A DNA stretch of 64,000 nt. It comes from an uncultured Clostridia bacterium (lineage in GTDB: Bacteria > Bacillota > Clostridia > Christensenellales > Borkfalkiaceae). The stretch spans positions 2,599 through 66,598 of the forward strand of contig CALVMP010000001.1 in assembly GCA_944346655.1 (NCBI GenBank). The letters run 5' to 3'. The notes below the pieces were generated by a model. It did no database searches. It had not been told where the DNA came from and worked only from the letters and a program-made list of their open reading frames with translations. A program made the position numbers and the translations under genes. Below are positions 23,395 through 60,406 of the stretch, one piece after another; the stretch's first letter is position 1; each line of letters opens with the position of its first letter.

Positions 23395-23672
23395 CGGGTT
23401 ATCTCCCGTTGTAAATGCGGCAGAGATTCTTCAGCTTCGCCTCAGAATGACATAGTAATTATAACGACTGGTCGATAGACAACTACAGTCTGTCATGTTG
23501 CGCGAGCGAAGCGCTGCTTTTGCGGCATGGTATAGCGTGATTGAAAAGACGACAGCAACCCGCAAAAACGTAGTCGAAACATCTTCTTGTAGAACTTCGG
23601 TTGACTATTATAATATTACTCACCGCAATGCAGCGGTGGAGCCTGCAATTCATTAGGCTTGCTCCGCTGCAA
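23395..23672. repeat. mosaic intergenic repeat block B
   Basis: Contains an inverted GTCATTCTGAGG...GAAGAATCTCT module (23420-23452), a 33-nt block matching 11659-11691 at 29/33 positions (23597-23629), and TCACCGCAATGCA-hairpin-TGCAATTCAT (23620-23653). Confidence 0.75.
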
Positions 23673-24781: not shown

Positions 24782-24789
24782 ATTGTTAC

Positions 24790-24875
24790 AAAAAAGTTCA
24801 GCTGCGTAAAGTGGCGCGGGTCGGACAGCCCGCGCACGAAAGGTTAAAACCCTGCGGTGGCTGTACGCGTCCTAA
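24790..24875 (+). promoter_or_regulatory. probable THF-I riboswitch aptamer
   Basis: The blocks GCGUAAAGUG, hairpin GCGCGGG/CCCGCGC, ACGAA and GCGGUG occur in the same order as I remember in the Eubacterium siraeum THF aptamer (GCGUUAAGUG, hairpin, ACGAA, GCGGUG). The loop GGAC can pair with the downstream GUCC as a pseudoknot. Confidence 0.6.
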
Positions 24876-39782: not shown

Positions 39783-40043
39783 TAGAGAATAGGGGATAGA
39801 GAATAGGGTATAATTCTGCGGCGGAGCCGCACGGCATCTCACCACAATGCAGGCGAAGCCTGCAATTCATGTTGCCGTTGACAAAGTAAATTGTAAAGAG
39901 GAGCCCAAGGCAACAATTCATGTGCGCTCGCGCACAATTCATGCACGAAGTGCAATTCATCGGGTTTCCGTCCAAGCCGCCCGCTACAAGACGAGTTTGG
40001 CATATGAACCCAATTCCCTAACCCCTAATCTCTAACCCCTAAC
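39783..40043. repeat. MITE-like intergenic element C bounded by inverted heptad-repeat arrays, with four hairpin+AATTCAT units inside
   Basis: Left array TAGAGAA TAGGGGA TAGAGAA TAGGGTA at 39783-39810. Right array on the minus strand TTAGGGG TTAGAGA TTAGGGG TTAGGGA at 40042-40015. AATTCAT occurs at 39864, 39915, 39936 and 39954. Confidence 0.75.
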
Positions 40044-48046: not shown

Positions 48047-49357
48047 ATGTGGTACGAATACCTTTACAGGGTGCTCAGCATAATAAACTATGCAATCCTG
48101 ATAGTGATTGCAATTCCCCTGCTCGTGCAGATCTGCTACGTGCTGTTCTGCTTCGTTAAAAAGAAAACCTTCCCCAAGAGCGAGGTCAAGGGCAGAATAG
48201 CCTATCTCATTCCTGCCCACAACGAGGCGTCCGTCATAGCGGACACCGTAAAAAACGTGCTCGAAGGGCAGGACTATCCCAGGGATAAGTTCGACGTGTT
48301 CGTCGTCGCCCACAACTGCACGGACGACACCGCCGCGCTTGCCCGGGAGGCGGGGGCGATAGTGCTCGTTCTGGACGATCCCGATCCTTCCCACCGCCTC
48401 GCGCTCTATCCCTTAAGGCACGGCATAGACCACATTTTAAGCATAACCGACAATCCCTACGACCTCGTCGTTCACCTCGACGCCGACAACCATATAAACG
48501 CCGAGTTCTCCTCCCTTATGAACGACGCGTACCAGTCGGGCGTAGATTTCGCCCGCCCCTACGAGGGAGCCATAAACGCCACGCAGAACTTCTTCACCAA
48601 GGCGTGCACCATGTTCTACGTGTTTGAATCGCGCTACGGCAGCAGGGTGAGGGAACGCCTCGGGTTGGGCGCCCACGTAAACGGCAGCGGCGCCACCATG
48701 AGCGTGCGCATGCTCAAAGCCACGGGCGGTTACGACAGCCAGACCATCTCCGACGACGCCGAATACTACTTCAACCGCCTTCTGGACGGCTATAAAGCGC
48801 ACTTTGTCGAGGACGCCGTCGTGTCGGAGGATATGCCCTCGTCCCTTTCGGATACATACAAGCGCAACAAGCGCATCGGCAGCGGCAGCGTGGCTTTGCT
48901 CAAGCCCAAGCTCTCCAAGCTCATGAAAAAGTTCTTCACGACGGGCGATTTATCCTGTCTCGAAGTGTGCATGTCGTACAGCTTCCTCTTTTTCACCGTG
49001 CTGCTCTGCGTTTGGTTCCCCCTGTACTATATCTACCACTTTGTCTATCTCTACTTCGCCGCGTACGGCGGACTGGCTGTGGAGCTGTATTCGCAGGCGT
49101 GGTATGCCTCTTCGCTGTGGATCACTTTAATTGTCGGCGGCAGCATACTCATAGGGTTGTTTGTCTTCTTCGGGTACCTTCAGGCGCTCTTCCTCGTCAT
49201 CACCGACTACAAAAAGATCGGCGCCAAAAATCGGCGCGAGCTCGCCGGCGCCGTGCTGTGGTTCCCCTTCTTTTTAATTGTCTATTCCATAACAATCTGC
49301 ATCGGCACGATGAGCAAGCCCAAGTGGGGCAGCGCCAAGCGCAATCCAACAAAATAA
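48047..49357 (+). CDS. family 2 glycosyltransferase with C-terminal multi-TM domain
   Basis: Has an N-terminal TM helix, then AYLIPAHNEASVI, VVHLDADNHI (DxD), SDDAEYY and four C-terminal TM helices. Confidence 0.8.
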   Translation: MWYEYLYRVLSIINYAILIVIAIPLLVQICYVLFCFVKKKTFPKSEVKGRIAYLIPAHNEASVIADTVKNVLEGQDYPRDKFDVFVVAHNCTDDTAALAREAGAIVLVLDDPDPSHRLALYPLRHGIDHILSITDNPYDLVVHLDADNHINAEFSSLMNDAYQSGVDFARPYEGAINATQNFFTKACTMFYVFESRYGSRVRERLGLGAHVNGSGATMSVRMLKATGGYDSQTISDDAEYYFNRLLDGYKAHFVEDAVVSEDMPSSLSDTYKRNKRIGSGSVALLKPKLSKLMKKFFTTGDLSCLEVCMSYSFLFFTVLLCVWFPLYYIYHFVYLYFAAYGGLAVELYSQAWYASSLWITLIVGGSILIGLFVFFGYLQALFLVITDYKKIGAKNRRELAGAVLWFPFFLIVYSITICIGTMSKPKWGSAKRNPTK

Positions 49358-49370
49358 GGAGCTGAGCGTT

Positions 49371-50324
49371 ATGCACGACAACTACGCGCTCGAAATAAAA
49401 AACTTAACCAAGTCCTACGGCGAGGTCAAGGCGGTCAACGACATCTCCTTCACGGTCGCCAAGGGCAGTTTGTTTGCCTTTCTCGGCGTAAACGGCGCGG
49501 GCAAATCTACTACCATAAACATTATCTGTTCCATTCTCGATAAGGACTCGGGCAAAATTTATGTCGGCGGCAACGACCTCGACGAAAACTCGCTCGCCAT
49601 ACGCCGCAACACGGGCATAGTTTTCCAGACCTCCGTGCTCGACAAGGAACTCACGGTTTTGCAGAATCTTGAAATCCGCACGGCGTTCTACGGGCTGGGC
49701 AGGGAGGAAAAGAAGAACAATATCGCCCAGATAATCGACCTTTTAGAGCTCGGACCCATCTTAAAGAGACCGGTAAAAAACCTTTCGGGCGGGCAGATGA
49801 GGAGGGTGGATATAGCAAGAGCCATGGTTCACCGCCCCAAGCTGCTCATTCTGGACGAACCCACGACCGGTCTCGACCCCAAAAACCGCCGCATAGTGTG
49901 GGCTTTAATAGATAAAATCCGTCTGGAGACGGGCATGACCGTCTTTCTCACCACCCACTATCTCGAGGAAGCCGAGCTCGCCACCGACGTCGTCATAATG
50001 GACAGGGGCAGAATAATCGCCCACGGCACGCCCAACAAGCTCAAAAACGCCTACTCCAACGATACCCTCGTCAGTTACATGGCGAGGAACGGGCAGTTTG
50101 AGGAGGGGCTCTCCTCCGACGGCTGCAAATTTTCCTACGACGAAGAAAAGGGATGTTACCGCATAAACATTGCCGACGCCTCAGCCGCGCGGGCAATAAT
50201 GCTCAAGTATCCCGAATACACCGCAGACGTCGAAATTTTAAAGGGCAAGATGGACGACGTGTTCTTAAACGTCACCGGCAGGGACATATCGGCAACGGAG
50301 GAAGAGAATGACTCCAAAGATTAA
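49371..50324 (+). CDS. ABC transporter ATP-binding protein (ABC-2/DrrA-like)
   Basis: Walker A is GVNGAGKSTT, the signature motif is LSGGQMRR, and Walker B is LLILDEPTTGLD. Confidence 0.9.
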   Translation: MHDNYALEIKNLTKSYGEVKAVNDISFTVAKGSLFAFLGVNGAGKSTTINIICSILDKDSGKIYVGGNDLDENSLAIRRNTGIVFQTSVLDKELTVLQNLEIRTAFYGLGREEKKNNIAQIIDLLELGPILKRPVKNLSGGQMRRVDIARAMVHRPKLLILDEPTTGLDPKNRRIVWALIDKIRLETGMTVFLTTHYLEEAELATDVVIMDRGRIIAHGTPNKLKNAYSNDTLVSYMARNGQFEEGLSSDGCKFSYDEEKGCYRINIADASAARAIMLKYPEYTADVEILKGKMDDVFLNVTGRDISATEEENDSKD

Positions 50325-51396
50325 GACAAACTATTTAGAACAGCTCACGGCGCTCACCAAAAGGCACCTGTTAGTTTTCATAAACAGCCGCATGCGCGTG
50401 TTTTTCACGCTCATGGTGCCCTTTATAATCTTCGTAATCTACATTTTCTTTCTGCGCGACCTCGAACTCATGACCATCGACCCCGTGCTCGAAGAGTACG
50501 GGCTTAGCATGGAGGATGCAACGCTCAGGCACTATGTCTACACGCTCGTCGATTCGTGGATGCTCTCGGGCATCGTCGCCATGTGTACCATAACCGTCTC
50601 GCTGCAGATAAACAACATAACGGTAAGCGATAAGGAAAACGGCATCAACCGCGACTTCGCGTCCTCGCCCGTCTCCTCCAACATGCTTATCTTCAGTTAT
50701 TTTCTGGCAAACTTCATAATTACCTTTGTCGTCTGCCTCATATTCCTCGTGGTGTGCTTCATCTACCTCGCCGCCCTCGGCGAGCTCATAGTTACGTTCG
50801 CTTCGGTAATGTCAATGCTCGGCGTGCTCGTGTTCGCCACGGTCAACGGCGTGCTGTTCACGGTGTTCATATGCTCGTTTATCTCGCGCGACTCGACGAT
50901 GGGCAGCGTTATTACCATATTCTCCACGGCGATAGGCTTCTTGATCGGCGCATATATGCCCCTCTTCATGTTGCCCGAGGCTGTGCAGTACGTCTGCGCT
51001 TTCGTGCCCGGCACCTATTCGTGCTCGCTGTTCAGGTTCGCGTTCATGAGCGATACCATAAACGAAATGACGGCTTACGTCGTGCAGATCATGCCCGAAA
51101 ACGGAGGCGTTTTAATGGAACAGCTCACCGACAGTTTCGGCTACAACCTCAACTTCTTCGGCAATATAGTAGAGCCCGGCTATCAGGCGCTCGCGCTCGC
51201 CATATTCACTATAATCCTGCTTGTTTTGAACATAGTGTTCGGCAAAAAGCTCACGGCGGTAATCGGCGGCATGACCAAAAAAATTCTCCCCAAAAGAAAA
51301 AAGCCCGTCCCCGCAGAGGGCGCGGAGGAGTCCCTTGCCGAAAATGAAAGCGGCGCACCGCTGTCCGAAAACGGCGACCCTCCCCAACAACAATAA
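50308..51396 (+). CDS. ABC-2 type transporter permease
   Basis: Six predicted TM helices. It overlaps the ATPase gene by 17 nt. The C-terminal tail is acidic. Confidence 0.8.
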   Translation: MTPKIKTNYLEQLTALTKRHLLVFINSRMRVFFTLMVPFIIFVIYIFFLRDLELMTIDPVLEEYGLSMEDATLRHYVYTLVDSWMLSGIVAMCTITVSLQINNITVSDKENGINRDFASSPVSSNMLIFSYFLANFIITFVVCLIFLVVCFIYLAALGELIVTFASVMSMLGVLVFATVNGVLFTVFICSFISRDSTMGSVITIFSTAIGFLIGAYMPLFMLPEAVQYVCAFVPGTYSCSLFRFAFMSDTINEMTAYVVQIMPENGGVLMEQLTDSFGYNLNFFGNIVEPGYQALALAIFTIILLVLNIVFGKKLTAVIGGMTKKILPKRKKPVPAEGAEESLAENESGAPLSENGDPPQQQ

Positions 51397-51410: not shown

Positions 51411-51438
51411 AAAATCCCCCTCCAAGGGGGGTTTTTTT
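51411..51438 (+). terminator. rho-independent terminator
   Basis: Stem CCCCC / GGGGG(G) with loop TCCAA, flanked by A-rich (AAAAAAT) and T7 runs. Confidence 0.7.
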
Positions 51439-51440
51439 AT

Positions 51441-51490
51441 GGGGAATAAATTATCACCACAATGCAAGCGGAACTTGCAATTCATGGGGT
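51441..51490. repeat. repeat copy D: TCACCACAATGCA-hairpin-TGCAATTCAT
   Basis: The sequence at 51454-51485 matches the cores at 39839-39870 and 23620-23653. Confidence 0.7.
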
Positions 51491-51552: not shown

Positions 51553-51581
51553 TTGAATATTGCATTTTTTTGTGGTATAAT
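51553..51581 (+). promoter_or_regulatory. near-consensus extended -10 promoter of the helicase-comEC-holA unit
   Basis: TTGAAT at 51553-51558, a 17-nt spacer, then TGG-TATAAT at 51573-51581. Confidence 0.7.
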
Positions 51582-51617
51582 TAAAAGGTAAAAATATGCA
51601 TTTTTAAAGGATTGATT

Positions 51618-54600
51618 ATGGCAGCCAACAACAAAAAGACTCCGCGGCTCGATTTGATTGAGCTTGAAGGCGAACTTTTAAATTACGTTTCGTATGCAAC
51701 CTATTACAACCGCATACCGCTCTTTACAACCCTCCGCGTCTATAACAACGGCGACGAGGATGTAGAAAACGTAGTCATAGCCCTCTCTTCGGACAGTTCT
51801 TTAGTGCTGCCCGCAAACGTCACGCTGCCCCTCGTGCCGGCGCATGCCAGTACGGAGGTAAAGTCTCCCGCCCTGTTAAATCCCAAATATCTTGCCGATT
51901 TAAAGGAACAGGAGCCCGCAAAAGTATTCGTAAAAGTCACGTGCGGCAAAAAAGAGATCTGTTCGCTCGAAACCGGACTGACAGCCCTGCCCATGGACAT
52001 GTGGTCGGGCATTCTGGGCTCGCCCGAAATGCTCTCCACCCACGTCCGTCCCAAGCTGTCCGACTGCCAGAAGGTGCTTGCCGAAGCGGGACTCCAGCTC
52101 AAAACGTGGGGCTATTCGCAGGAGTGGTCGGGCTATGCCGGCAACGACAAAAACTCCGTCCGCGCCGCGTTCGCCTCGGTGTTCTCGGCAATCCGCAACC
52201 TCAACATTGAAAGGGGGGAGGAGGGCGATCTTTCCCTGCCCGTGCTTGTGGGCAACGTTGCAGAGATCGTCGGGGAACGCACTGCCACCCCCGTGGGAAT
52301 GGCTGCGTTCGCCTGCTCCTGCCTCGAGGCGGCAAGGCTTCACCCCGTAATAGTGCTCGGCAAAAACAAACTCGGCGTGGGCGTGTGGCTGTACGAAAGC
52401 TGTTTTACAACTACCCTCCAGGACGACATGTCCGTCATAGAACGCTACATTGCCGACGGCGTAAACAATCTCGCCATAGTCGACGTCGACGACCTCTTCG
52501 CGCACAAAAACGCCAGCTTCACCACCGCCGCTTCGCACTTCTCCTCGGCGCTTGCCGCGGGCAGGTTCGAAGCCCTTCTCGACATAAAGCGCTGCCGCAT
52601 CGGCGGCGTGTTCCCCATGCCCATAAAGGTAAAGGCTGGCGCCTCTTACGAAATTCTCGGCGACAAGCAGTTCTCCTATGAGGAGAGACCGAAGGACATA
52701 ATCGACGCCGACAAGCTCAACCTCGGCAGGGCGGCTTCCAAGGACAAGAACTGGGAAAGGCGCCTTTTAGACCTCTCTTTAAAGAACAACCTGCTCTCGT
52801 TCAGGTTCCGCAAGGACGTAATACACCTTCTCACCTACGACGCCGCGGCGTTCCTCGAAAGGGTGAAGGACAGGGAAAAACTTACAATCCACGCCAACGC
52901 CAACCCCATTGAGGGCGCCCTCTACTTCGGCGGCGGGGCAAAGCTGAGCACGCTCGCCGAACTCATAAATATTGAACTCGGTCAGGGCATTGTCCGCGCA
53001 TATGCCCGCACGGAATCGCTGCTCGAAAGCGCCTCCACGCTCATCCGCAAGGCGCGTTCGACGCAGGAGGAGGTGGGCGCAAACACCCTGTTTATGGCAA
53101 TCGGTTTTTTAAAGTGGAAGGAACAGTCCGAAAGGGAGTTCAAATACGCCCCCCTGGTGCTCCTGCCCGTCACTTTGAAAAAGACCAAAACCCAGGGCAT
53201 AGAGGTCGAACTTTCGGACGAGTTCAGGGTCAACACCACCCTCCTCGAATTTTTAAAAGTGGAGTTCGGCATAGACATAAGGGGGCTCGAATCGACAGAC
53301 CTCACCCCCTCCGAAGTGCTCGCCGTATTCCGCGCAAAAACTTCCAATATGAAGGGCTGGCTCGTCCATGACGACATATATATCGCCCAGTTCACCTTTG
53401 CCCGCTATGCCATGTGGGCGGACATAAGGGCGAACATGCCCAAGTATAAAAACAACGCGCTCATCGCCAGCCTGCTTACAAACACCAACAAGCTGGGCGA
53501 AAACAGGCTTGCCGGAGTAAACGAGGACGACGGCGACCCCGAAGAGATTTTAACGCCCCTGCCCTGCGACTCCTCGCAGTACGCGGCAATCTCCGAAAGC
53601 GCGAAGGGCACCACCTTTGTTTTGCACGGTCCTCCCGGCACGGGCAAGAGCCAGACGATTACAAACATCATAGCCAACGCCGTCGACTCGGGCAAGCGCG
53701 TACTTTTCGTCGCCGAAAAGCAGGCGGCGCTCCAGGTCGTAAAAAAGCGCCTCGACGAGATAGGAATAGGCGAATTCTGTCTCGAGCTCCACTCGGGCAA
53801 GTCCGCGCAGAAGGGGGAGATTGTACGCTCGATCGAGTCCACCCTCGCCTTAAAGGACGACTATAGCGGCGGCGAAAAATTTTCGGCGGACGCCCACAAG
53901 ATAGTCGAGGACAGGGCAAGGCTCAAAGCGCCCCTTTCGGCTCTGCACAAAAAGCGCCGCCTCGGCGTGTCCGTCTACGAGGGCATACTCTATTATCTCC
54001 AGAACAAGAACGCCCCCGAGCTCGTAAATATTGAATCTACCTTCTACGACGGTCTCACCGCCAAAAAGCTCTCCGAGTACGAAAGCATGCTCTTAACCGC
54101 CCAGGCGGCAGCCAAGGAGTGCGGCGGCGTGTACCGCTCGCCCTTCTCGGGGGTAAACATATACATCTGCGACGAAAAGGTGCAGGCTTCGGTGCTGTGC
54201 GCGGCTGAGGTCGTGCTCGCCGAGCTCAAGCATCTCAAAAATTACCTCGGGCTCTTCCTCGATACATTCAACCAGAAGATGTCGGCATTTACGCCCAAAA
54301 AACTCGAAAACCTCGTCGAAATCTGCACCGTGTTAAAGGAGGACAAGCTCAAAAACTTCTTCAGCTGCAACGAGGCTGATTTCTACGTCTTCTTCAACGC
54401 CAATCTCCGCTACGACGCAGAGGTGCGCAACTGGCTGACCCGCTTCAAATCCCTCCCCGACCTCGGCAAACTTGCCGACGATATCGAAAGCGAAATAGAA
54501 AACTGGGGCGAAAACTACCGCTCTTCGCGCACGCTGCTTGCGGTAATAAAGCGCATCAACCGCTGCGCCCGCACGCCCATGGCGGAGAGCGAGGAGCTGG

Positions 54601-57251
54601 AGTGGATAAAACGCGCGTACGAGATAGAACAGGCGCGCAACAAAATTCTCGGCTTTACCAACCTCTCGTCGGCGTTCGTCGGCATCGGCGGCGGCATAAA
54701 CGACAGAAAGAGGGAGGAGTACATGCAGCCCATCTATGCCCTCCACCAGAGCTGCGCCTCGGTGTTCATGGACTACAACGGCGACGCCTTCAACAGCGTG
54801 TGCGCCAAGGCGGCGGACGGCTATTTAAAGCCCCTCTTAACCGGGCTCATAACTGCCGCAGTGTCCTTTATCAGGGCGTGCGACCACTTCAACGCCGTAA
54901 TCAAGTGCGATAAAAACCTCGTCGGAGACGACGACGTGTTCGACTACTACAACTCCAAGTGCTCGGCGCTCATCGACAATATCGACATGCTCCCTGCGTG
55001 GTGCATGTACAAGGCCACGGCAAAAAAGCTCAACGACTGCGGTCTTACCTTTATCACCGACGCCATGGAGTCGGGTCAGATCAGCGGCGAAAAAATCCTC
55101 TCCGCCTTCCGCAAAAACGTCTACCGCAACTTCATTCAGACCAACATACCCGCCGACGAAAATCTTTCGTCCTTCTCGGCGGCGCTGCTCGACGAAACCG
55201 CACGCAACTTTTCGCAGGTGCTGGACGAGTTCGCCCGTCTCACGCGCGAAAAGATACGCCACGACCTCATATCCCGTCTGCCCTCATCCTCGACGGAGGG
55301 GCCGCTCGCGCTCGAGCTCATGGCGTTCAACAGGCAGGTAAAGGGCAACATGCGCGGCTTCAACCTGCGCTCGATTTTTACCGACTTCCCCGAACTTCTG
55401 AAGGTCGTCGCGCCCTGCCTTTTAATGAGTCCTTCAACCGTGTCGCAGTATCTGCCCGCCGACCCCGAACTCTTCGACATCGTCATCTTCGACGAGGCGT
55501 CCCAGATGCCTACCTGCGAGGCGGTCCCCTCCTTAGCCCGCGCCAAGAGCGCCATAATCGTCGGCGACCCCAAGCAGATGCCGCCCACTTCCTTCTTCGT
55601 CACAATGGACACCGACGAGGAAAATCTCGAGGCGGAAGATCTCGAATCCGTCCTCGACGACTGTCTCGCCTTAGGCATTCCCGAAAAGCACTTAAACTGG
55701 CACTACCGCTCCAAGCACGAAAGCCTCATTGCCTTTTCGAATATCATGTACTATTCGTCCAGGCTGTGCACCTTCCCCTCGCCCGACGCCATGGACAGCC
55801 GCGTAAAACTGCACTTTGTCGAAGGCGGCGTGTACGAGCGCGGCGGCGCCAAGATAAACAAGCAGGAGGCGGAAGAACTCGTAAACGCCGTCATAGCGCG
55901 GCTCAAAGACCCTGCTCTTCGGCACTCGTCCTTAGGCGTTGTCACCTTCTCCACGCCCCAGCAGGTGTATATCGAAAAACTGCTCTCAAAGCGCATAACC
56001 GCCCTCGGGCTCGAGGAGGCGGCGTATGAAAGGGAGGAGCCGCTGTTTGTCAAAAACCTTGAAAACGTCCAGGGCGACGAAAGGGACGTAATAATGTTCT
56101 CCGTCTGCTACGGTCCCGACGCGGCTGGCAGAATTTCTTTAAACTTCGGACCTTTAAACCAGCTCGGCGGCTGGCGCCGTCTCAACGTCGCCGTCTCGAG
56201 GGCGAGGGAGGAGATGATAATTTTCTCTTCCATGCGCTATTCCATGATAGATCTCTCGCGCACAACTTCCCGCGGCGTGGCAGGTCTGAAGGCGTTCCTC
56301 GAATTTGCCGAAAAGGGCAGAACGACCATCGCCCAGCCCTCCGACGAGGTGATAATAAACCGCAACGGCATAGGGCGCTTTGTCGCGGCGGAACTCTCGC
56401 AGTACGGCTATGAATGCCGCACCGACGTAGGCGTCTCCGACTTCAAGATAGACGTCGCCGTCGTCGACCCCAAAAACAAGCACAACTTTATCCTCGCCAT
56501 TTTATGCGACGGCACGACCGACTTCTCCGTAAAGGACCGCTCGGTCATGCAGATTCAAACGTTAAAGCGCAACAACTGGAATGTAATAAGGCTGTACGCC
56601 ATAAATTTCTTCAACAATCCCAAGCGCGAAATAAAGAAGATAAAGGAATTCCTCGATAAACTCACCTCGACCGAAAAGGTGACTGCCACGGCTTACAAAA
56701 AGACCTACCGCGCGGCAAAGGTCGAGGAGTGCCCTCTCGATTCGGCTGCCGTCTTAAGCGGCGGGCACGACGGCGAAATCATAAAAATTATCCGCGCCGT
56801 AGTAACTGCCGAGGAGCCCATCTCTTCCGACTTCCTCATAAAGCGCACCCTATCGCTTTGCGGCATCACTAAGTACGGCACCAAGCTCGAAAACAAAATT
56901 GCTTCCCTCGCCGCGGCGTGCTCCTTCAAGAGCGTAAACATGCTGGATAAAACCTACTATTACAGGAACGAAAAGTACCTCTCCTACGACAGATACCGCG
57001 TCGAAAACGGCACCATGCTCCGCACCTCCGACAGCGACTTCACCCCGTGGGACGTAATATCGCTCGTAAAGGCGATTCTCCTCGACAAGGTCTCCATGTA
57101 TTCCGACGAACTCGTCGTGGCTGTCGTAAAGGGGCTGGGTCTCGTGCGCGTTTCGGACAAAATGACGGCTTTCGTAAACGCCTGCATAGACGAGGGCGTG
57201 AACACCGGGCTGTTTATCCGCTCCATATCCGACAGGATATCCTTAAGCTGA
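51618..57251 (+). CDS. giant DUF4011-type SF1 (Upf1/DNA2-like) helicase with Vsr/DUF559-like PD-(D/E)xK block and DUF3320-like tail
   Basis: DUF4011-type strings: NWERRLLDLSLKNNLLSFRFRK and TLFMAIGFLKWKE...YAPLVLLPV. Helicase motifs: GPPGTGKSQT, VIFDEASQMP, IVGDPKQMPPT, HYRSKHESLI, VQGDERDVIMFS and RLNVAVSRAREEM. Nuclease-like block: DFKIDVAVVD...ILAILCDG...NWNVIRLY. ATG 51618 follows AAAGG by 7 nt. Confidence 0.85.
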   Translation: MAANNKKTPRLDLIELEGELLNYVSYATYYNRIPLFTTLRVYNNGDEDVENVVIALSSDSSLVLPANVTLPLVPAHASTEVKSPALLNPKYLADLKEQEPAKVFVKVTCGKKEICSLETGLTALPMDMWSGILGSPEMLSTHVRPKLSDCQKVLAEAGLQLKTWGYSQEWSGYAGNDKNSVRAAFASVFSAIRNLNIERGEEGDLSLPVLVGNVAEIVGERTATPVGMAAFACSCLEAARLHPVIVLGKNKLGVGVWLYESCFTTTLQDDMSVIERYIADGVNNLAIVDVDDLFAHKNASFTTAASHFSSALAAGRFEALLDIKRCRIGGVFPMPIKVKAGASYEILGDKQFSYEERPKDIIDADKLNLGRAASKDKNWERRLLDLSLKNNLLSFRFRKDVIHLLTYDAAAFLERVKDREKLTIHANANPIEGALYFGGGAKLSTLAELINIELGQGIVRAYARTESLLESASTLIRKARSTQEEVGANTLFMAIGFLKWKEQSEREFKYAPLVLLPVTLKKTKTQGIEVELSDEFRVNTTLLEFLKVEFGIDIRGLESTDLTPSEVLAVFRAKTSNMKGWLVHDDIYIAQFTFARYAMWADIRANMPKYKNNALIASLLTNTNKLGENRLAGVNEDDGDPEEILTPLPCDSSQYAAISESAKGTTFVLHGPPGTGKSQTITNIIANAVDSGKRVLFVAEKQAALQVVKKRLDEIGIGEFCLELHSGKSAQKGEIVRSIESTLALKDDYSGGEKFSADAHKIVEDRARLKAPLSALHKKRRLGVSVYEGILYYLQNKNAPELVNIESTFYDGLTAKKLSEYESMLLTAQAAAKECGGVYRSPFSGVNIYICDEKVQASVLCAAEVVLAELKHLKNYLGLFLDTFNQKMSAFTPKKLENLVEICTVLKEDKLKNFFSCNEADFYVFFNANLRYDAEVRNWLTRFKSLPDLGKLADDIESEIENWGENYRSSRTLLAVIKRINRCARTPMAESEELEWIKRAYEIEQARNKILGFTNLSSAFVGIGGGINDRKREEYMQPIYALHQSCASVFMDYNGDAFNSVCAKAADGYLKPLLTGLITAAVSFIRACDHFNAVIKCDKNLVGDDDVFDYYNSKCSALIDNIDMLPAWCMYKATAKKLNDCGLTFITDAMESGQISGEKILSAFRKNVYRNFIQTNIPADENLSSFSAALLDETARNFSQVLDEFARLTREKIRHDLISRLPSSSTEGPLALELMAFNRQVKGNMRGFNLRSIFTDFPELLKVVAPCLLMSPSTVSQYLPADPELFDIVIFDEASQMPTCEAVPSLARAKSAIIVGDPKQMPPTSFFVTMDTDEENLEAEDLESVLDDCLALGIPEKHLNWHYRSKHESLIAFSNIMYYSSRLCTFPSPDAMDSRVKLHFVEGGVYERGGAKINKQEAEELVNAVIARLKDPALRHSSLGVVTFSTPQQVYIEKLLSKRITALGLEEAAYEREEPLFVKNLENVQGDERDVIMFSVCYGPDAAGRISLNFGPLNQLGGWRRLNVAVSRAREEMIIFSSMRYSMIDLSRTTSRGVAGLKAFLEFAEKGRTTIAQPSDEVIINRNGIGRFVAAELSQYGYECRTDVGVSDFKIDVAVVDPKNKHNFILAILCDGTTDFSVKDRSVMQIQTLKRNNWNVIRLYAINFFNNPKREIKKIKEFLDKLTSTEKVTATAYKKTYRAAKVEECPLDSAAVLSGGHDGEIIKIIRAVVTAEEPISSDFLIKRTLSLCGITKYGTKLENKIASLAAACSFKSVNMLDKTYYYRNEKYLSYDRYRVENGTMLRTSDSDFTPWDVISLVKAILLDKVSMYSDELVVAVVKGLGLVRVSDKMTAFVNACIDEGVNTGLFIRSISDRISLS

Positions 57252-59330: not shown

Positions 59331-60302
59331 ATGAAATATACAGAACTCAAAGCCGACATTTCAAACGGCGACCGCCGCATATATCTCTTCGAGGGAGAGG
59401 ACGCGTATTTTTCCGAACACGGGGAAGAGCAGGTGAAAAACGCCTTTTTAAGCCTGCCCGAACTCAACTACGCCGCCTTCGACGGGGCTAATTTAAAGGG
59501 CGGTGCGCTCGCCTCCTTAACCTCCGCAATGTCCGCCTGTCCCTTTATGAGCGAAAAGCGCATAATAAGGGTGGGGGAGTTTTATCCCTCCGAGGCGGAC
59601 TACGAAAAATATTTAAAGACCGCCTTCGAAAACTGCCCCGACACCACAATACTCATAATCGTCAACCGCTCGGCGGGCAAGGGCGCACAGCTCAAGCGCA
59701 AAAAGTGCATAACGTACGTCGACTGTTCGCACGCCGACGAGGACACGGTCAACCGCTGGGTTTACGCCACGCTAAAAAGGGCGGGCGTCGCCTCCGACGC
59801 GCAGGCGTGCAGGCTGGTCGCGCAGTACTGCCTGTGCGACATGTCGAGGGTGGCAGGCGAAACGAATAAACTCATTCTCTCCAAAATCAACCCTGTAACC
59901 GTGCAGACCGTCGACGATATCGTCTACAAGGACGCCGACTACCGCATATACGAGATGACCGACGCCGTAGCCGTAAAAAATTATTCGCGCTTCATAACAA
60001 TACTTTCCGAGCTTTCGCAAAAGTCGGCAGAAAGACCCGCTCTCGTTTCGGCGCTCTACAGGTATTTTAAAAACCTGCTCATTATCCTTACCTCCGACGA
60101 GGACAGAGCTTCTCTCGCTTCAAAGCTCAAAATGCCCGAATTCGCCCTTAAGCGTTCTTACGAAAGGGCGCGTTCCTTCGGCAGGGACAGGCTGCTTGCC
60201 TATACTTCTGCGCTGTATAATTTTTCTGCGGACATGCGCTCGGGCAAGCTTTCGCCCGACGGAGCCTTTTTTTCGTCGCTCGCCGCCATTTTGTTTGCAT
60301 AA
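59331..60302 (+). CDS. holA: DNA polymerase III delta subunit
   Basis: Starts YLFEGEDAYF. Length is 323 aa. It sits immediately after comEC, the canonical position in Firmicutes. Confidence 0.7.
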   Translation: MKYTELKADISNGDRRIYLFEGEDAYFSEHGEEQVKNAFLSLPELNYAAFDGANLKGGALASLTSAMSACPFMSEKRIIRVGEFYPSEADYEKYLKTAFENCPDTTILIIVNRSAGKGAQLKRKKCITYVDCSHADEDTVNRWVYATLKRAGVASDAQACRLVAQYCLCDMSRVAGETNKLILSKINPVTVQTVDDIVYKDADYRIYEMTDAVAVKNYSRFITILSELSQKSAERPALVSALYRYFKNLLIILTSDEDRASLASKLKMPEFALKRSYERARSFGRDRLLAYTSALYNFSADMRSGKLSPDGAFFSSLAAILFA

Positions 60303-60406
60303 TTTTTAATTTTTGCCGTCAAAGCGGCGGTAAACGCTTTATTTTTTGCTGCGAAAATAATATAATAGTTTACAACACACTTTAATTTTAGCGGGGTGTA
60401 CAGATT

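Follow-up and report, generated by a model that had tools for sequence, protein, structure and literature searches.

Does a giant helicase-nuclease gene that belongs to the core genome of its host provide standing immunity, or is it a genome-maintenance enzyme derived from immune genes? The question is raised by a 64,000-nucleotide (nt) stretch of DNA from an uncultured Clostridia bacterium (GenBank assembly GCA_944346655.1, contig CALVMP010000001.1, positions 2,599 to 66,598; hereafter the window), which encodes an 1877-amino-acid (aa) protein combining a DUF4011 domain, a superfamily 1 (SF1) helicase and a Vsr-like nuclease. Existing catalogues list the DUF4011 giants Hhe, ProA and PDC-S37 as anti-phage systems that consist of a single gene, and their mechanism is seemingly unpublished. 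The window protein is a divergent, vertically inherited, sub-threshold member of the ProA/PDC-S37 branch of the DUF4011 helicase-nuclease superfamily. The family is thus already catalogued; what is new is a vertically fixed branch that lacks a Cys/His pair. This whole branch is inherited like a housekeeping gene across Candidatus (Ca.) Coproplasma, Ca. Borkfalkia and related metagenome-assembled genomes (MAGs) of gut Clostridia; it has dropped the catalytic pair of its transglutaminase-like module, and its helicase, nuclease and DNA-binding tail are still strongly constrained. The reading that we favour, to which we give an even chance, is that of a constitutive, vertically fixed ProA-like helicase-nuclease which would provide standing core-genome surveillance against invading DNA.

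A ProA-like protein and its distance from Hhe

The gene is a single unbroken open reading frame at 51612-57251 on the forward strand, whose likely start is the ATG at 51618, so that the uninterrupted 1877-aa frame claimed in a first-pass annotation, made from the sequence alone, is confirmed from that ATG to the stop at 57251. The NCBIfam model NF058533, named 'anti-phage protein ProA', aligns with residues 25-1692 and scores 1449.7 bits against a cutoff of 1500, a narrow shortfall that comes largely from the tail, since the best aligned stretch stops at position 1716 of the 1903 of the model. The PADLOC model for PDC-S37 (PDLC05009) matches residues 377-1862 (E 6.4e-284, 943.6 bits, model positions 11-1534 of 1550), which is to say from DUF4011 through the tail, but it omits the N-terminal 380 aa, and the window gene, for its part, lies outside any defence island. 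A literature search for PDC-S37 found no paper, and the 'PDC' label in PADLOC presumably marks an unvalidated phage-defence candidate.

The likeness to ProA extends to the complete architecture, with a beta-sandwich, a transglutaminase-like core, DUF4011, an SF1B helicase with a large insertion, an MTES_1575 nuclease and a DUF3320/winged-helix tail following one another in both proteins, and to a similar length (1877 aa in the window protein, 1963-1985 aa in ProA). The window protein differs in having Pro225 and Lys251 in place of the Cys and His of ProA (GTCLD...GHAF), and its gene is chromosomal, vertically inherited and set in housekeeping synteny, whereas the Klebsiella proA gene is plasmid-borne and flanked by insertion sequences (IS). 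Two proteins served as controls for the ProA model: WP_200995691.1 of Klebsiella pneumoniae plasmid pM63-1, with 2225 bits, and WP_237924679.1 of Bacteroides finegoldii, with 2197 bits. On pM63-1, IS1, IS3 and Tn3 elements surround the proA gene, and an AbiJ-NTD4 gene lies nearby. A tblastn search of plasmid records recovered full-length relatives with 28-36% identity over ~75-89% of the query, N-terminal domain included. One such record (L082; NZ_OY725931.1, B. finegoldii 'plasmid 29', 45.8 kb), labelled a plasmid, looks chromosomal; it has rpsA, glutamine synthetase III and bglX aboard, and its ProA gene stands between rpsA and the opposite-strand gene of a reverse-transcriptase family protein.

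The first-pass annotation had instead suggested a kinship with Hhe, the system named by Gao et al. 2020, and there are points in its favour: Hhe is likewise a single gene that joins DUF4011, an SF1 helicase and a Vsr-like nuclease, and both the PADLOC model (PDLC02194; E 1.7e-132) and the NCBIfam model (NF042953; E 1.9e-202) recognise the window protein. These matches, however, are confined to residues 1119-1698 and 1083-1698, respectively, and the NCBIfam score of 675.4 bits compares with a cutoff of 2000. The C-terminal helicase half and the nuclease are thus homologous, but the N-terminal half differs; the ProA and PDC-S37 models give far stronger matches, which extend along the full length, and the partial match to Hhe recurs in bona fide ProA proteins. 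A true Hhe orthologue is therefore very improbable. Within the DUF4011 helicase-nuclease superfamily, Hhe forms a branch that is farther removed, and the earlier label 'Hhe-like' is to be replaced by 'ProA/PDC-S37-like, sub-threshold'.

An N-terminal module without its catalytic pair

The first ~380 residues had been described as free of recognisable motifs and, together with the DUF3320 tail, as functionally uncharacterised. Neither description stands, as a beta-sandwich (residues 14-123) and a probable transglutaminase-like core (residues 136-347) were found in this region and both a transglutaminase domain and the overlap of DUF3320 with winged helix-turn-helix (wHTH) repeats had already been noted for MTES_1575 in the literature (PMC3710099). 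When residues 1-380 were compared with 1.84 billion cluster representatives, 1177 clusters (50% identity) matched at E <= 1e-3. Because the best 150 of these 1177 are mostly proteins of 1850-2300 aa, that is, helicase-fused ones, the N-terminal region is, on these matches, a standard part of the giant helicase family.

What the region contains emerges from the relatives and from a structural model. An alignment of 62 relatives carries the conserved motif GQRvRl...GTCLDLsLLyAsCLEAiGLnP...GHAFvGvWL...DD, which has the look of the Cys-His core of a transglutaminase or papain fold. The AlphaFold2 model of residues 1-650 (mean predicted local distance difference test score, pLDDT, 85) falls into modules at 14-123, at 136-347 and, for DUF4011, at ~375-620. 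Its best Foldseek matches in the PDB are TG3, TG2, factor XIII, protein 4.2 and the putative protease 3kd4, at E values of only ~1e-3; the animal transglutaminases and 3kd4 likewise consist of a beta-sandwich followed by a catalytic core. The beta-sandwich itself matches Ig-like/CARDB domains and the N-terminal domain of transglutaminases. Sequence searches gave less: Pfam Transglut_core was recovered in two relatives only, below threshold (E 0.006 and 0.18), Pfam found no match on the window protein's own N-terminus, and a search of PDB sequences with the family profile recovered no transglutaminase. A transglutaminase domain has previously been described in MTES_1575 (Anantharaman et al. 2013, PMC3710099). 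Given the motif in the relatives, the Foldseek matches and this earlier description, a transglutaminase-like fold is likely for residues 136-347.

The catalytic residues of this core were counted in 83 long representatives that carry the N-terminal domain. Cys and His are both present in 61 of them and both absent from 21, with a single representative having one alone, and this near all-or-none retention supports the view that they form a functional pair. In the window protein, the positions of the pair are taken by Pro225 and Lys251, and its closest relatives likewise lack the pair. Since the pair is missing, the transglutaminase-like core of the window protein is almost certainly non-catalytic and most likely serves as a sensing or regulatory module. 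It is still moderately conserved within the clade (0.63 fraction identical); the beta-sandwich varies more than any other part (0.48). The sequences further suggest that ProA-like members without Cys and His form a distinct subfamily. Such a branch would be a natural separation-of-function variant, in which motor and nuclease do not need the Cys/His chemistry, and its core status together with the loss of the pair offers a useful handle on the mechanism of the DUF4011 helicase-nuclease family.

Helicase, nuclease and tail

The remaining modules (Table 1) largely bear out the domain order first proposed. The DUF4011 block is a clear Pfam match, and in the model it is surrounded by a structured alpha/beta module that spans residues ~375-620; Foldseek with the 1-650 model was swamped by beta-sandwich and transglutaminase matches and gave no fold information on DUF4011. 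The Upf1-like SF1 helicase core is complete, as had been stated: Pfam AAA_11 covers residues 651-714 and a second stretch (61.7 bits), AAA_12 covers residues 1350-1538 (53.2 bits), and all the quoted motifs are in place, with GPPGTGKSQT starting at residue 671, VIFDEASQMP at 1289, IVGDPKQMPPT at 1314, VQGDERDVIMFS at 1484 and RLNVAVSRAREEM at 1521. Residues 1271-1545 hold motif II (DEASQ, with D1292 and E1293), motif III (GDPKQMPPT), motif V (VQGDERD) and motif VI (VAVSRAR, with R1528). All of the 83 representatives share K677, D1292 and E1293, and all but one have R1528 (82 of 83); the window protein has all four. Domain 1A is split by a helical insertion of ~510 aa (residues 761-1270), in which Pfam found no domain; its profile matches the coiled coils of chemoreceptors, BRE1 and tropomyosin at profile positions ~840-1150, and it probably has coiled-coil or helical-bundle character.

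The closest solved helicases are Sen1, IGHMBP2, Upf1 and DNA2 (E 7e-15 with the family profile). The window protein shares with these Upf1-like SF1B enzymes, Sen1/senataxin among them, the core motifs and the insertion of accessory domains into 1A. The homology is nevertheless confined to the motor, and none of the eukaryotic Upf1-like helicases has transglutaminase-like, DUF4011 or Vsr-like modules. Their functions lie in transcription termination, nonsense-mediated decay and Okazaki-fragment processing, roles that need not carry over to the window protein.

The Vsr-like nuclease block of the first-pass annotation is borne out by Pfam MTES_1575 (PF18741), which matches residues 1589-1679 (E 6.4e-17, 61.8 bits against a gathering cutoff, GA, of 38.2); DFKIDVAVVD starts at residue 1608 and ILCDG at 1628. 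Between 75 and 78 of the 83 representatives share D1612, D1631, D1640 and R1641, respectively, and all of these residues are found in the window protein. A model of residues 1546-1877 (pLDDT 85.6) has the alpha-beta-beta-beta-alpha-beta core of Vsr, and Foldseek matches it to the endonuclease-like structure 3hrl (template modelling score, TM, 0.69) and to the homing endonuclease I-Bth0305I, 3r3p (TM 0.72), both target-normalised. The idea of an inactive nuclease, which comes from reading AILCDG in the window protein beside VECDGATYH in Klebsiella ProA, was dropped: the Glu of 'IECDG' occurs in only 5 of the 83 representatives, which makes the Leu at its place in the window protein uninformative, and the conserved D1612, D1631, D1640 and R1641 are retained. 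In family members without the Cys/His pair, the loop that follows the 'CDG' motif of the nuclease is often shorter as well.

The DUF3320-like tail, for which ~250 aa had been claimed, measures ~160-190 aa and takes the form of tandem winged helices in the model; the Pfam DUF3320 match (residues 1716-1758, 20.8 bits) is below the GA of 25. PF11784 is among the precomputed matches of some close homologues, and Foldseek relates the tail to SelB WH2-4, ESCRT-II, the WHB domain of cullin and the tWHD of Rpc5. An overlap of DUF3320 with wHTH repeats was noted for MTES_1575 (PMC3710099), which resembles the window protein in its Vsr-family restriction endonuclease (REase) domain, in these repeats and, probably, in its transglutaminase domain, but differs in having a HEPN RNase domain. 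Within the clade, conservation is highest in the nuclease and the helicase (0.81-0.82 fraction identical). Because these are the most conserved parts, every catalytic module except the transglutaminase-like one is under purifying selection.

Inheritance with a housekeeping neighbourhood

One genome per GTDB species was scanned for relatives; 148 stretches encode one, and 80 loci, representing at least 80 species, were fetched. Each of the 8 named Ca. Coproplasma species is among them, as are Ca. Borkfalkia and related MAGs, and protein identities fall from 88% to 51%. Full-length relatives have ~1870-1880 aa, a few are longer, and some contigs truncate the gene. Across these loci the order is fixed wherever contigs allow: a HelD-like gene, the helicase gene, comEC, holA, cdaA, a DUF1015 gene and the gene of an aspartate kinase. 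Of the 80 loci, 64 have the HelD-like gene upstream, and in 45 a comEC match directly follows the helicase gene, most of these contigs running on into holA-cdaA-DUF1015-aspartate kinase. In the 'uncultured Christensenella' MAGs, many of them of the MGBC series, the downstream part is rearranged and the HelD-like gene is still directly upstream. Approached from the other side, metagenome contigs found through the HelD-like gene carry the helicase gene in 3 of the 3 cases that reach far enough downstream, a small sample.

Divergence tells the same story as gene order. The identity of the helicase protein co-varies with that of each neighbour (Spearman rho 0.80-0.95), and its mean identity of 66-69% is like that of CdaA and of the HelD-like protein and above that of HolA and ComEC. 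In the window, the neighbours are the HelD-like gene, a cassette with a family 2 glycosyltransferase (GT2) and an ATP-binding cassette (ABC) transporter, comEC, holA, cdaA, the DUF1015 gene and aspartate kinase, and there is no defence island. Because synteny is fixed and divergence tracks the neighbours, these comparisons indicate that the helicase gene is a vertically inherited core gene and not part of a mobile defence island. The first-pass annotation had read the gene as a candidate defence module and had named fixed housekeeping synteny in the clade, combined with a lack of effect on phage, plasmid or transforming DNA, as an outcome that would speak against this. Libraries of defence hidden Markov models (HMMs) do recognise the protein, but the genomic half of that outcome, fixed housekeeping synteny, is what Ca. 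Coproplasma and Ca. Borkfalkia present, and the case cautions that defence should not be called from HMM hits alone.

The adjacency of comEC raises the possibility of a competence-linked DNA processor that, with ComEC, inspects, unwinds or degrades DNA entering the uptake channel. The helicase stop lies 1 nt ahead of the comEC start, the ComEC match begins 12-22 nt past the helicase-gene match in tblastn of the closest relatives (L001-L004 and L006), and helicase, nuclease and DNA-binding domains would suit the processing of incoming DNA. The linkage is not universal, however: the 'Christensenella' MAGs have other genes downstream, one relative (L078) lacks comEC, so that holA directly follows the helicase gene, and in Ca. 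Borkfalkia the gap ahead of the ComEC match reaches 400-800 nt. ComEC also diverges far faster, as the fastest-evolving gene of the block (mean identity 41% against 68% for the helicase gene), and ProA relatives elsewhere are not adjacent to competence genes. We consider a role in competence improbable. The ComEC protein of the window matches Pfam DUF4131 and Competence, and Pfam found no metallo-beta-lactamase domain in it.

A two-gene system with the HelD-like neighbour, which is adjacent in nearly all relatives, was rejected as a reading of its own and figures below only within the domestication alternative. That protein, whose best NCBIfam matches are HelD and HelR (E ~1e-30, all far under the cutoffs), is nearest to the housekeeping HelD that recycles RNA polymerase, and in the window the 3.6-kb GT2/ABC cassette intervenes between the two genes.

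Standing immunity or genome maintenance

On the reading that we favour, namely standing surveillance against invading DNA, the protein would be made constitutively from its own promoter, sharing a transcript with comEC and holA. It would load on nucleic acid through its winged-helix tail and its helicase, and ATP-driven 5'-3' translocation would then search for abnormal ends or structures in DNA of the kind to which replicating phages, plasmids or other invading DNA give rise. The beta-sandwich, the dead transglutaminase-like core and DUF4011 may gate this activity, and on engagement the Vsr-like domain would nick or cleave the DNA. In this lineage the protein would thus act as a fixed guardian of the core genome, not as a mobile accessory defence gene. 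Translocation in the 5'-3' direction on single-stranded nucleic acid is predicted from family membership only. Work on Hhe offers a partial parallel: in a knockout screen, seven DNA-metabolism genes of T7 class II emerged as possible triggers, co-expression of Bas63 gene 40 is toxic only in hhe-bearing cells, and the authors of the screen propose that Hhe responds to the activities of the trigger genes, not to the proteins themselves (bioRxiv 10.1101/2024.10.10.617714). These trigger data would fit a sensor of aberrant DNA metabolism.

Several points weigh against standing surveillance. First of all, the fixed core position and the co-divergence with housekeeping neighbours mean that the gene lacks the population pattern that is typical of defence genes; the viral contigs of IMG/VR yielded no close relative, and two more distant relatives without Cys and His also lie among ordinary chromosomal genes. 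Second, the window protein scores slightly under the curated ProA equivalog cutoff and is without the Cys/His pair that 61 of the 83 representatives keep. Third, the anti-phage label of ProA has the name of the NCBIfam model as its sole source, and a literature search for the ProA name found no primary description. Finally, we infer the polarity of the helicase, its substrate and the activity of the nuclease alike, and no published biochemistry was found for the Hhe, ProA or PDC-S37 giants.

Much of the same evidence would suit a domesticated housekeeping enzyme, in which a ProA-like ancestor was recruited for maintenance of the host genome and nuclease and tail act on the cell's own DNA. Such a role could be the removal of R-loops or stalled transcription in the manner of Sen1/senataxin, or the processing of aberrant replication intermediates, maybe beside the HelD-like motor. 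Fixed synteny, co-divergence with the neighbours and a housekeeping-like rate of change all speak for domestication, as do the HelD-like adjacency that survives in the 'uncultured Christensenella' MAGs despite the rearrangement downstream and the fact that Sen1, IGHMBP2 and Upf1 are the nearest solved helicase cores. Loss of the transglutaminase-like Cys/His pair would fit a change of function. The gene is probably co-transcribed with holA, which is presumably essential. Pseudomonas aeruginosa offers a parallel, since every isolate of that species has, as part of the core genome, a large DUF4011 gene that flanks a defence hotspot (PMC10250203).

Against domestication, the full-length architecture is identical to that of plasmid-borne, IS-flanked ProA proteins, and DUF4011 helicases are not known to have a housekeeping function in any bacterium. 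Mere synteny may account for the link to HelD, given the 3.6 kb of cassette that separate both genes in the window, and core-genome defence genes exist, so that conservation alone is compatible with defence. We regard domestication as a less likely alternative to standing surveillance. Slightly less likely still is its most specific form, in which the core branch without Cys and His would be an ex-immune, domesticated bacterial helicase of Sen1/senataxin type with a nuclease, resolving R-loops, stalled transcription complexes or aberrant replication intermediates of the host chromosome, partnered with the HelD-like motor and co-expressed with the clamp-loader gene holA.

Expression signals and other features of the window

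The coordinates of the gene, its modules and the surrounding elements are collected in Table 1. The near-consensus TTGAAT-17-TATAAT promoter of the first-pass annotation is present, but the number of such sites is about that expected by chance (~0.9 per 400-nt stretch scanned). Because about one site would be expected in the stretch scanned, the promoter at 51553-51581 is plausible and statistically unremarkable. Downstream, the gap between the stop of the helicase gene and the start of comEC is 1 nt, that between comEC and holA is 5 nt, and a terminator-like site follows holA; for these reasons the three genes are likely to share one transcript. Taken together, the expression signals of the helicase gene look constitutive.

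Table 1. Features of the helicase-nuclease gene and its surroundings (window coordinates).
Feature	Position	Strand	Remarks
HelD-like UvrD-family gene, 790 aa	45564..47936	+	nearly always the upstream neighbour in relatives
GT2 glycosyltransferase, ABC ATPase and ABC-2 permease cassette	48047-51396		between HelD-like and helicase genes
Terminator-like hairpin and T-run	51416..51431	+	closes the upstream ABC-2 permease gene
Copy of ~35-nt dispersed hairpin repeat	51454..51488	+	TCACCACAATGCA-stem/loop-TGCAATTCATG
Sigma-70-type promoter-like site	51553..51581	+	TTGAAT-17-nt spacer-TG-TATAAT; 10/12 positions match
Ribosome-binding site AAAGGA	51606..51611	+	6 nt 5' of ATG; read from sequence
Coding sequence, 1877-aa ProA-like helicase-nuclease	51618..57251	+	stop TGA 57249-57251
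N-terminal beta-sandwich, residues 14-123	51657..51986	+	AlphaFold2 model, Foldseek
Transglutaminase-like (papain-fold) core, residues 136-347 (likely)	52023..52658	+	alignment, Foldseek
DUF4011, residues 382-546	52761..53255	+	Pfam E 5.7e-30, 104.8 bits, GA 22.2
SF1 helicase domain 1A, first part, residues 651-760	53568..53897	+	Walker A GPPGTGKSQT, K677
Helical insertion of ~510 aa inside domain 1A, residues 761-1270	53898..55427	+
Rest of domain 1A and domain 2A, residues 1271-1545	55428..56252	+
MTES_1575/Vsr-like REase fold domain, residues 1589-1690	56382..56687	+
DUF3320 region, residues 1716-1877	56763..57248	+	modelled as tandem winged helices
comEC, 690 aa	57253..59325	+	Pfam Competence 2.4e-51
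holA, DNA polymerase III delta subunit	59331..60302	+	5 nt 3' of comEC
Terminator-like hairpins	60312..60340	+	3' of holA; probable end of transcription unit

The GT2/ABC cassette is a variable insertion into an otherwise fixed synteny. It occurs only in the closest relatives and is wholly absent at 73% identity or less, and the GT2 gene is missing in relatives L008, L012, L033, L055 and L061.

Upstream of the gene, the mobile-looking repeat that had been pointed out is present at 51454, but it does not mark an insertion of the helicase gene. This idea was rejected, as the window holds three copies of the ~35-nt repeat, all on the forward strand (23620-23655, 39839-39872 and 51454-51488), and all 95 related loci lack it, including those at 83-88% protein identity. 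The flanks are conserved between copies: the 13-mer TCACCACAATGCA is exact at 39839 and 51454 and has one mismatch at 23620, against a chance expectation of 0.03. The stems vary between copies with pairing kept (GCAAG/CTTGC versus GCAGGC/GCCTGC), and Rfam gave no match. The repeat looks like a strain-specific element of the repetitive extragenic palindrome (REP) or miniature inverted-repeat transposable element (MITE) kind, or like a protein-binding site, and it is probably unrelated to the function of the helicase gene. Elsewhere in the window, a tetrahydrofolate (THF) riboswitch was matched at 24787-24874 on the forward strand, where its 37.2 bits slightly exceed the gathering score of 36.

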